This document shows, one piece after another, positions 371-2,308 of a DNA stretch of 9,328 bases; the stretch's first letter is position 1, and every line of letters begins with the position of its first letter. The position numbers and the translations under genes are program-made. The notes under the pieces are model-generated. The model was not told the DNA's origin. It did no database searches and worked only from the letters and a program-made list of their open reading frames with translations. Origin of the DNA: a virus (Duplodnaviria > Heunggongvirae > Uroviricota > Caudoviricetes); the IMG/VR virus record IMGVR_UViG_2751185961_000008; one strand, 5' to 3'.

Positions 371-949
371 TTAGCCGTTAAGTTTAACTGCCAGACCTGC
401 GACATATTCCCCTTGATAACGAGCAATAGACAGTTCTTCCTGGCTGGGCTGGCGTGAACCGTCACCGCCTGCGATGGTGGTTGCGCCGTACGGCGTACCG
501 CCGCGAACCTGTGAAACGTCAAATAATTCCTGCGCTGCGTAGCCAATGGGGACAATCACCATGCCGTGATGCGCAAGGGTCGTCCAGGTGGATGTGATGG
601 TTTGTTCCTGACCGCCGCCAGTACCGGTGGAACTAAAGACGCTCGCCAGTTTTCCGTATAGTGCGCCGGAAGCCCACAGGCCGCCCGTCTGGTCGAGGAA
701 GGTACGCATTTGACCGGACATGTTACCAAAGCGGGTAGGTGTACCAAAAATAATGGCGTCGTAATCGGCCAGTTCTTGCGGGGTTGCAACCGGTGCAGTT
801 TGCGTTTTACCGCCTGCTTTTTCAAATAATTGCGGCGGCATGGTTTCCGGTACACGCTTAACGACAACTTCTGCGCCATCCACTTTGCTTGCACCCTCAG
901 CAACTGCGCGTGCCATCGTTTCAACATGTCTAAGGATATGCTTTATCAT
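371..949 (-). CDS. wrbA: wrbA (NAD(P)H:quinone oxidoreductase, flavodoxin-like), 5' end replaced by prophage DNA; hybrid ORF, probably non-functional
   Basis: From about residue 9 onward ([33 protein letters not shown]...[13 protein letters not shown]) the ORF matches WrbA. The first 8 codons (MIKHILRH) replace the native N-terminus [15 protein letters not shown], so the first beta-strand and FMN phosphate-binding loop and the native promoter are missing. The hybrid ATG overlaps the integrase stop codon. Confidence 0.8.
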
Positions 950-950
950 T
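905..950. other. attL prophage-host junction (att core) within the 5' end of wrbA; approximate
   Basis: WrbA-matching sequence ends and phage-derived sequence begins in the interval around 915-930 (native ...[10 protein letters not shown] versus observed ...[10 protein letters not shown]). The integrase 3' end directly abuts or overlaps this point. Exact core boundaries need attR or attB for comparison. Confidence 0.5.
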
Positions 951-2256
951 TTGAAAAATATAATTTTATTTCATCCTCCTGGTCACTTTGGGGCACGTCT
1001 GGGGCACGGGCATTAAGGACATTATTCAGCATAGCAACCTGAGTCACGCTGCACTCAGGCATCCATGCACCATAAACATTGTAGACCATGCTGGCGCTGG
1101 AGTGCCCCATCTGTGATGCAATAAATGTCGGGTTTGCTCCGGCAGATAAAGCCCAGCACGCATAAGTATGGCGTGACTGATATGCTTTCCGGGCTCTTAT
1201 ACCCGCTCTTTTCATTGCTGAGTCCCATGTTGCCCCGATGGAGCTTACCGCATAGTTAATACCCGCCTTGTGATTCTTGCGAACGATTTGCGGACAGAAA
1301 ACAAAAGTGCACTCGTGCAAAATTGTTCTTCCGTACTCGCGTAATTTAACGGTGATCTGATGCTGCCTGCCAAGACGAGTAAGCATCGCCTGGTTTTTAA
1401 GTGCTTCAATGGCTGGTGCCAGAAGATGTATAACCCGGTCGGTGCCAGCATCAGTCTTTGGTAGCGTAAAATCACCTATTTTTGTAAAATTTCTTCGCAC
1501 TGTTATCGTGCCAACTTTCAGGTCGATATCCTCCCATGCAAGTGCGGCAATTTCACCATGTCGCATCCCCGTAAAAACAGCCACTGTCCAGAGGTTTTTG
1601 GTCTGTTGATGATGACAGGCATCAATGAGGCGACCAAACTCCTCTCTGGTCAGTGGATCCGGCACAGGTTTTGATTTCCTCAGTGGTGTTATTGAATTAA
1701 ACGGGTTTTTCTCCAGATACCCGTTTTCAGCGGCAAAGCTGAACATCCCGGCAGTTGTTGTCATGTAATAGTTTACCGTGGGGACTGTTCTTCCTTTGTT
1801 GGTGGAAGTGTTTTTCCTGCTTTCCTTTTCCCCAGTCAGTAAATCTTTCCTGATGAACAGCAAATCCTCTTTTGTAATCGAGGATGCCAGTCTACCCACG
1901 CCAAGCCTCGGTAGCATATTTTTCATCACTGATTGATAACGATTTAAGGCGTTACTACTGATTTCCATTGCTTTCAGAGTAAGCCATTTCTGTGCCAGTT
2001 CACCGACGGTGATATCTTTTTTTACCAGGCCAAATAGCTTCAGGTTAGGTGAGTCAGGGAATCGCTCGGCATAATCAAACGTTCCTGTTCTGATTGCAAA
2101 GCAGACCGAAGCCCTTAACTCACCAGCGATCTTTCTGTTTTTCGGTGTATCGGGCACGCGAAGATTTTCGCGCACTCGTTTACCCCTGTACTTAAACGTT
2201 ATTCGGAGTTTTCCTCCGTGATTTTCAACGCCGGCTGGATAGGCTGAATTCGCCAT
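946..2256 (-). CDS. int: phage integrase, tyrosine recombinase family (436 aa from the ATG at 2256; ORF-track alternative GTG start at 2280)
   Basis: Long ORF adjacent to the att junction. C-terminal catalytic region shows the tyrosine-recombinase pattern ([15 protein letters not shown] ... [35 protein letters not shown]). AGGAGG sits 4 nt upstream of the ATG at 2256, so this start is preferred over the upstream GTG. Confidence 0.9.
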
Positions 2257-2308
2257 TGTTCCTCCTGCGTCCAAGAGCACGCTCAGGTTATACTCTTATG
2301 GACAAGAA

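Follow-up and report, generated by a model that had tools for sequence, protein, structure and literature searches.

The window analysed here is a stretch of viral DNA of 9,328 nt, and the genes relevant to the junction described below, i.e. yccJ, a WrbA-like ORF, the integrase gene int, the excisionase gene xis and a lambdoid early-left region, are all located on the minus strand (Table 1). Bases 1-125 are 99.2% identical to the genome of strain E2348/69, in which they are annotated as ISEc13 transposase adjoining yccJ, and colinearity with K-12 begins at approximately base 100-105. The ISEc13 insertion site is the same in EPEC O127:H6 E2348/69 and in five other complete genome records, which suggests that the host background of the window is E2348/69-like. 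yccJ carries this name in the records of K-12, Sakai and E2348/69. Over bases 1-924 the window differs from E2348/69 at two positions (99.8% identity); this similarity stops at 925 and is gone past 930. In E2348/69 the same ISEc13 lies beside yccJ, yet wrbA is intact with a length of 597 nt.

Table 1. Positions of host, junction and prophage features in the window
Feature	Position	Strand	Basis or remark
ISEc13 (IS4-family) right end, between agp and yccJ	1-104 (approximate boundary)	+	Host context, outside the prophage
yccJ	123-350	-	Pfam YccJ, E = 4.6e-40; 20 nt downstream of wrbA
Hybrid wrbA ORF, 192 aa	371-949	-	ORF list; alignment to native WrbA; the same 579 nt are a wrbA pseudogene in Sakai
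Part of wrbA that stems from the host (core included)	371-924	-	Bases 1-924 compared with E2348/69
Extended att site CATC-GTTTCAA-CATGTC, 17 bp	914-930	+	Agreement of attP and attB
att core (crossover/overlap region) GTTTCAA, 7 bp	918-924	+	Four-way attP/attB/attL/attR comparison
Phage-derived 5' end of the hybrid (MIKHILRH and first base of Val9)	925-949	-	att comparison
Tyrosine integrase, 436 aa	946-2256	-	Pfam domains; identity to Sp5 Int; catalytic-box alignment
Candidate P'-arm Int-binding repeats TGGGGCAC	989-996, 1000-1007, 1102-1109	+, +, -	Within the last ~55 int codons
Excisionase Xis, 94 aa	2309-2593	-	Pfam DUF1233 putative excisionase, E = 5e-30
Terminator-like hairpin AACCGCCTTCGGGCGGTT and T-run	2620-2637	-	Joint of the Sp5-type int-xis module with a different early module
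IS1 end	8983-9328		~91% identical to IS1 in three other records (L009, L013, L014)

The WrbA-like ORF is a hybrid of phage and host sequences. Codons 1-8 are of phage origin, codon 9 (GTT, Val) straddles the boundary between phage DNA and the att core, and codons 10-192 correspond to codons 16-198 of native WrbA, so that the hybrid is identical to the K-12 protein from E16 to the C-terminus. An earlier note on this DNA, made from the sequence alone, listed the two ORFs at 371-949 (192 codons) and 946-2280, both on the minus strand; both are present in the ORF list, and the native WrbA N-terminus given in the note agrees with the K-12 sequence. The alignment to native wrbA that it proposed as a check for an intact N-terminus shows that the hybrid differs before E16. 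Its statement that the first eight codons replace the native stretch holds in that the native N-terminus is lost and needs adjustment in its count: the nine residues MIKHILRHV stand in place of the native 15, with codon 9 straddling the junction. H8 of the hybrid coincides with native H14, and native residues 1-13 are thus exchanged for seven unrelated residues. The plus strand reads TCAT at 946-949, i.e. ATGA in the coding direction, and the int stop codon (948-946) overlaps the ATG of the hybrid (949-947), as the note had observed. In free attP an ORF of just 14 codons starts from this ATG, and the in-frame fusion therefore looks accidental. The phage-derived codons are also variable, with K3 in the window and N3 in Sakai and SCPM-O-B-9504.

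The att core was delimited by a four-way comparison in which attP was from Stx2 converting phage II, attB from K-12 and E2348/69, attL from the window and Sakai, and attR from Sakai. To the left of GTTTCAA, attL is identical to attB and attR to attP; to the right, attL is identical to attP and attR to attB. The alignment with attB and attR suggested in the earlier note, with attR taken from Sakai, thus delimits the core to the seven bases at 918-924, which span codons 15-17 of native wrbA and codons 9-11 of the hybrid. Downstream of int, 21 nt separate the end of the stop codon from the core, which is, therefore, outside the integrase coding sequence, so that the earlier placement of the core inside the 3' end of int has to be abandoned. 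Around the core, attP and attB share 16 of 18 positions (CAT(G/C)-GTTTCAA-(C/T)ATGTC). A single att-like site (914-930) is present in the window, with none expected by chance (200 shuffles), and a search across the 9.3-kb window brought up neither another att copy nor long direct repeats; the duplicated core is seen in relatives only (Sakai attR), and the attR of the prophage in the window lies beyond the window. The core has been recorded before. NC_004914.3, the record of Stx2 phage II, labels it 'attachment site', the same 7 bp are a 'duplication due to insertion' in LC645428.1, which describes an Stx1a phage, and the Sakai Sp5 feature starts at the equivalent of window position 918. The extended att site is the counterpart of a 17-bp wrbA site in K-12, CATCGTTTCAATATGTC, which is cited as the 933W integration site (bioRxiv 10.1101/2022.08.08.503262). 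We also considered that the phage might bring a replacement wrbA 5' end and in that way reconstitute the gene; this idea was rejected, as the identity between attP and attB is limited to the 16 of 18 nt around the core.

Combining the attachment-site comparison with the alignment to E2348/69, we are almost certain that positions 371-2280 constitute the attL junction of a lambdoid prophage integrated in E. coli wrbA by means of an Sp5/933W-type tyrosine integrase. The comparison shows that (i) strands were exchanged within the 7-bp core GTTTCAA, in codons 15-17 of native wrbA, so that the wrbA promoter and codons 1-15 must be located at the far end of the prophage (attR), beyond the window, where TTCATG-GTTTCAA-TATGTCCGTACATGG would be expected ahead of the wrbA 5' end and promoter, and (ii) wrbA codons 16-198 have come to be joined, accidentally in frame, to the 25 nt of phage sequence past the int stop, giving a 192-codon ORF, the ATG of which overlaps this stop (ATGA). 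In this model, yccJ would be severed from the promoter of wrbA, and wrbA should be whole again after precise excision. The four-way att switch and the near-isogenic empty site in E2348/69 bear out the central proposal of the earlier note, namely that a lambdoid prophage is integrated in wrbA, and none of the results is at odds with the integration model.

Since IS elements flank the window (ISEc13 at 1-104 and IS1 from 8983), the junction could alternatively be an assembly chimera or the product of a rearrangement that is neither site-specific nor mediated by Int. We found no support for a chimera, and we give this explanation almost no credence: the identical junction at the same 7-bp core is found in 216 complete genomes and in many draft assemblies, and wrbA is known experimentally as the site at which both 933W and Sp5 lysogenise K-12. 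The 216 genomes, in which the wrbA'-int junction is contiguous, were found among 5,426 complete E. coli genomes; Sakai, EDL933 and O145 strains belong to them. In the assembly collection, the index for exactly this Int protein lists 953 blocks, and in all eight places read for it the gene order is int, 192-aa ORF, yccJ, agp; neither ISEc13 nor the IS1 insertion of the window was found in these eight contigs. Among complete RefSeq E. coli genomes, no match to 371-2280 exceeds 96.5%. wrbA is one of four standard sites for Stx prophages in O157 and is used by non-Stx prophages as well (PMC8309913). We consider the arrangement an ordinary wrbA prophage junction of an already described kind.

The ORF list extends int to a GTG at 2280. 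The ATG at 2256 is preceded by AGGAGG and gives a protein of 436 aa as in the Sakai annotation and is, thus, probably the start codon; the integrase ORF reported in the earlier note does exist, and it is the upstream end of the gene that is likely to be shorter than proposed. Int contains an arm-binding N-terminal domain (Arm-DNA-bind_2, PF12167, residues 7-70, E = 8e-26) as well as a catalytic C-terminal domain (Phage_integrase, PF00589, residues 202-395, E = 8e-17) and is identical to the Sakai Sp5 integrase ECs_1160 in 419 of 436 residues (96.1%). Similarly, Xis is identical to the Sp5 excisionase ECs_1161 in 91 of 94 residues (97%). For this int-xis module, the proposed relationship to 933W/Sp5 is therefore well founded. 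The box I Arg (FTGMRHGEI), the box II motif YQSRH and the GH motif of Int align with those of recombinases of solved structure. Box II (residues ~357-361) reads Y-Q-S-R-H, compared with H-x-L-R-H in solved tyrosine recombinases, and the first His of this catalytic box is therefore replaced by Tyr.

The repeat TGGGGCAC occurs three times in the window, with 0.32 copies expected, and all three copies are located in the 3' end of int. In the attP region of Stx2 phage II, seven of eight copies of TGGGGCA lie within ~190 nt of the core, to its left or right, where 0.57 would be expected. We infer that these repeats are candidate arm-type Int-binding sites; if so, it would be the P' arm, and not the core, that overlaps int. 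In phage lambda, an arm-binding tyrosine integrase is transcribed toward attP, the 3' end of int adjoins the P' arm or overlaps with it, the overlap region is 7 bp and xis lies upstream of int. The window shares with lambda the arm-binding integrase, the 7-bp overlap region, an int gene abutting the P' arm and xis upstream of int. However, the core and arm sequences of lambda are unrelated to those in the window, box II reads YxxRH here instead of HxxRH, and lambda, which integrates between gal and bio, leaves genes uncut, whereas the phage in the window enters the 5' end of a coding sequence without supplying a replacement 5' end.

The closest likeness is to Sp5 (VT2-Sakai) and BP-933W of O157:H7, which have the same wrbA site, the same 7-bp core, the same order yccJ-wrbA'-int-xis, and the same ATGA overlap and 192-codon hybrid, with 96.5% nucleotide identity over 108-2638. 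The differences are that the early module is another one past ~2620-2637, that residue 3 of the hybrid is N in these prophages and K here, and that only the window has ISEc13 in the host flank and IS1 within the early region. Stx2 converting phage II (NC_004914) and the O26 Stx1a phages (LC645428 and relatives), which are represented by free-phage or prophage records, have an attP with the same GTTTCAA, TGGGGCA repeats on both arms and int-xis modules that are ~94-95% identical to that in the window; their early and late regions are different. By every feature testable in the window, the prophage is a member of the Sp5/933W group of wrbA-integrating phages.

What does integration mean for WrbA? 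In the WrbA structures of Carey and of Andrade from 2007, the phosphate-binding loop is reportedly formed by S10-I15. The hybrid aligns with solved WrbA chains in the PDB from chain residue 11-12 only, with the NCBIfam WrbA equivalog models from position 12-13, where native WrbA aligns from position 1, and with the Pfam profile FMN_red from position 17; the earlier suggestion that the native N-terminus is missing is in agreement with these limits. A full-length WrbA match that includes strand beta-1 and the FMN phosphate-binding loop is not obtained with the hybrid. Given the extent of the loop and the limits of the alignments, the hybrid is therefore predicted to have lost, from its flavodoxin-like fold, strand beta-1 together with most of the loop that binds the FMN phosphate. 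In flavodoxin-fold FMN enzymes related to WrbA, this loop directly follows beta-1 (PMC10404700, PMC3338774).

With the native promoter moved to attR together with the 5' end of the gene, the hybrid also seems to have neither its own promoter nor its own Shine-Dalgarno sequence. No correctly spaced Shine-Dalgarno sequence was found upstream of the ATG at 949, the nearest AGGAGG being ~20 nt off. A weak promoter-like match (9/12) is located upstream of this ATG at 986-957 on the minus strand; the two promoter-like matches found compare with 3.0 expected from shuffles and so provide no evidence for a phage promoter. On the basis of the lost beta-1 strand and loop and the lack of an own promoter and Shine-Dalgarno sequence, we expect the lysogen to be WrbA-negative. 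The weak promoter-like match and possible translational coupling at ATGA mean that a truncated polypeptide may nevertheless be made. One could go further and suppose that the hybrid is a working gene, translated by termination-reinitiation at ATGA each time int is expressed, or expressed from a promoter in the 3' end of int, with a 192-aa product that folds and retains WrbA activity or modifies it. Such a reading could draw on the weak match at 986-957, on the fact that every lysogen examined has the in-frame fusion with the ATGA overlap, and on the 325 bits that the hybrid scores on a WrbA equivalog model with a cut-off of 141, but its protein would have seven unrelated residues in place of native residues 1-13, which form beta-1 and the start of the phosphate-binding loop, and its message would have no Shine-Dalgarno sequence, while the promoter-like matches are below the shuffle expectation. 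Moreover, the variation at residue 3 and the 14-codon ORF of free attP speak for an accidental fusion, and the curated Sakai record treats the gene as a pseudogene. We consider a working hybrid extremely unlikely and favor the model in which the lysogen is without functional WrbA.

Annotation of this ORF differs between records. RefSeq/PGAP names the 192-aa hybrid (WP_000607018.1) 'wrbA NAD(P)H:quinone oxidoreductase', as if it were intact, in lysogens (e.g. L002, 8001-8579), whereas the Sakai record has a pseudogene. The name is given because the hybrid scores far above the family cut-offs, with 325.5 bits for TIGR01755 (cut-off 141) and 322.8 bits for NF002999 (cut-off 132.5), the models of NAD(P)H:quinone oxidoreductase type IV. 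With this label on the hybrid, inferences regarding the WrbA gene content or phenotype of such lysogens are therefore unreliable. A change 'wrbA G25>A (V9I)' was reported after loss of 933W (bioRxiv 10.1101/2022.08.08.503262). The same G25>A (V9I) change is the difference between hybrid and native sequence at window position 925, and the published 'mutation' may, thus, represent prophage excision.

Integration could in addition rewire two transcription units. Read-through from int together with ATGA coupling would place WrbA' and yccJ under the control of prophage induction, and the stationary-phase wrbA promoter would read into genes at the right end of the prophage. If this were the case, host stress physiology would be linked to the behaviour of the prophage; we regard the scheme as very unlikely. 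In Sakai attR (L005, 1196-2420), the wrbA promoter points into the right end of the prophage and the first wrbA codons are part of a sequence encoding a 20-aa fusion peptide. The antirepressor gene ECs_1251 lies ~540 nt from the attR wrbA promoter on the same strand. A search for a terminator-like hairpin between the wrbA start in Sakai attR and ECs_1251 found none, and a promoter-like site is present upstream of ant. In the Sakai layout, read-through from the host promoter into right-end genes of the prophage is possible.

Past xis, the relationship to Sp5 changes abruptly. Nucleotide similarity to Sakai Sp5 ends at 2638, similarity to PhiR5_2 and JNEC-KY204 begins at 2617, and this joint coincides with the strong terminator-like hairpin at 2620-2637. 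From 2617 to 8982 the best matches are PhiR5_2 (98.2%) and the ynfG prophage of JNEC-KY204 (99.8%), and the early-left region contains DUF4222, exo, bet and gam, a 690-aa RecE-N-like ORF and the kil region. PhiR5_2 and the JNEC-KY204 prophage share this early-left region with the window; unlike the window, they have another integrase, encoded by a gene of 1164 nt (~387 aa; intD in JNEC-KY204), and another att site (ynfG). As far as can be read from the sequence, the prophage is, therefore, a mosaic of an Sp5-type int-xis module and a different early module.

This mosaicism bears on the suggestion that we are dealing with a Shiga-toxin-converting phage like 933W/Sp5 whose stx lies beyond the window. 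In Stx-converting phages stxAB is located between Q and the lysis cassette; the window ends, at an IS1, while still in the early-left region. Sp5/933W and many Stx1a and Stx2a phages have in common with the window the int-xis module as well as the wrbA site, and the early region also matches the Stx1 phages phiSTEC1589-Stx1c (95.8%) and 75/02 and POCJ13 (both 91%). On the other hand, similarity to Sp5 stops at 2638, and the closest relatives over 2617-8982 are PhiR5_2 and the JNEC-KY204 prophage, in the examined regions of which no stx annotation was found. Non-Stx prophages also occupy wrbA (PMC8309913), the host flank points to an E2348/69-like EPEC background, and the IS1 that interrupts the early region hints at decay. 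Weighing these observations, we consider an Stx-converting phage rather unlikely. In this prophage, integrase type and attachment site do not predict cargo; the terminator forms the joint of the int-xis module with an early region that is found elsewhere with a different integrase. The occupancy of wrbA by phages with Sp5/933W-type integrases is textbook knowledge in EHEC genomics, and public records already contain the 7-bp site; in these respects the junction carries little scientific weight.

Three further observations concern the early region. GC content is low at 6750-7500 (36-41%, compared with ~50% elsewhere), an interval that covers a 128-aa ORF at 6879-7265, for which no Pfam match was found, and the region of a KilR-like 79-aa ORF. 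Upstream of gam-bet-exo is the acidic 690-aa ORF (4699-6771, minus strand), the similarity of which to RecE is confined to the N-terminal part of the latter: the Pfam match, Exonuc_VIII, spans residues 55-197, and the match to the NCBIfam model PRK09709 is limited to positions 1-598 of 877, with 742 bits against a cut-off of 1269. Although database records name it 'exodeoxyribonuclease VIII', the ORF appears to be without the C-terminal nuclease part of the PRK09709 model. Finally, IS1 cuts from 8983 onward into a hypothetical early-left gene of 237 aa, and this gene is intact in a metagenome contig that is 99.9% identical (L011, 2948-3661).
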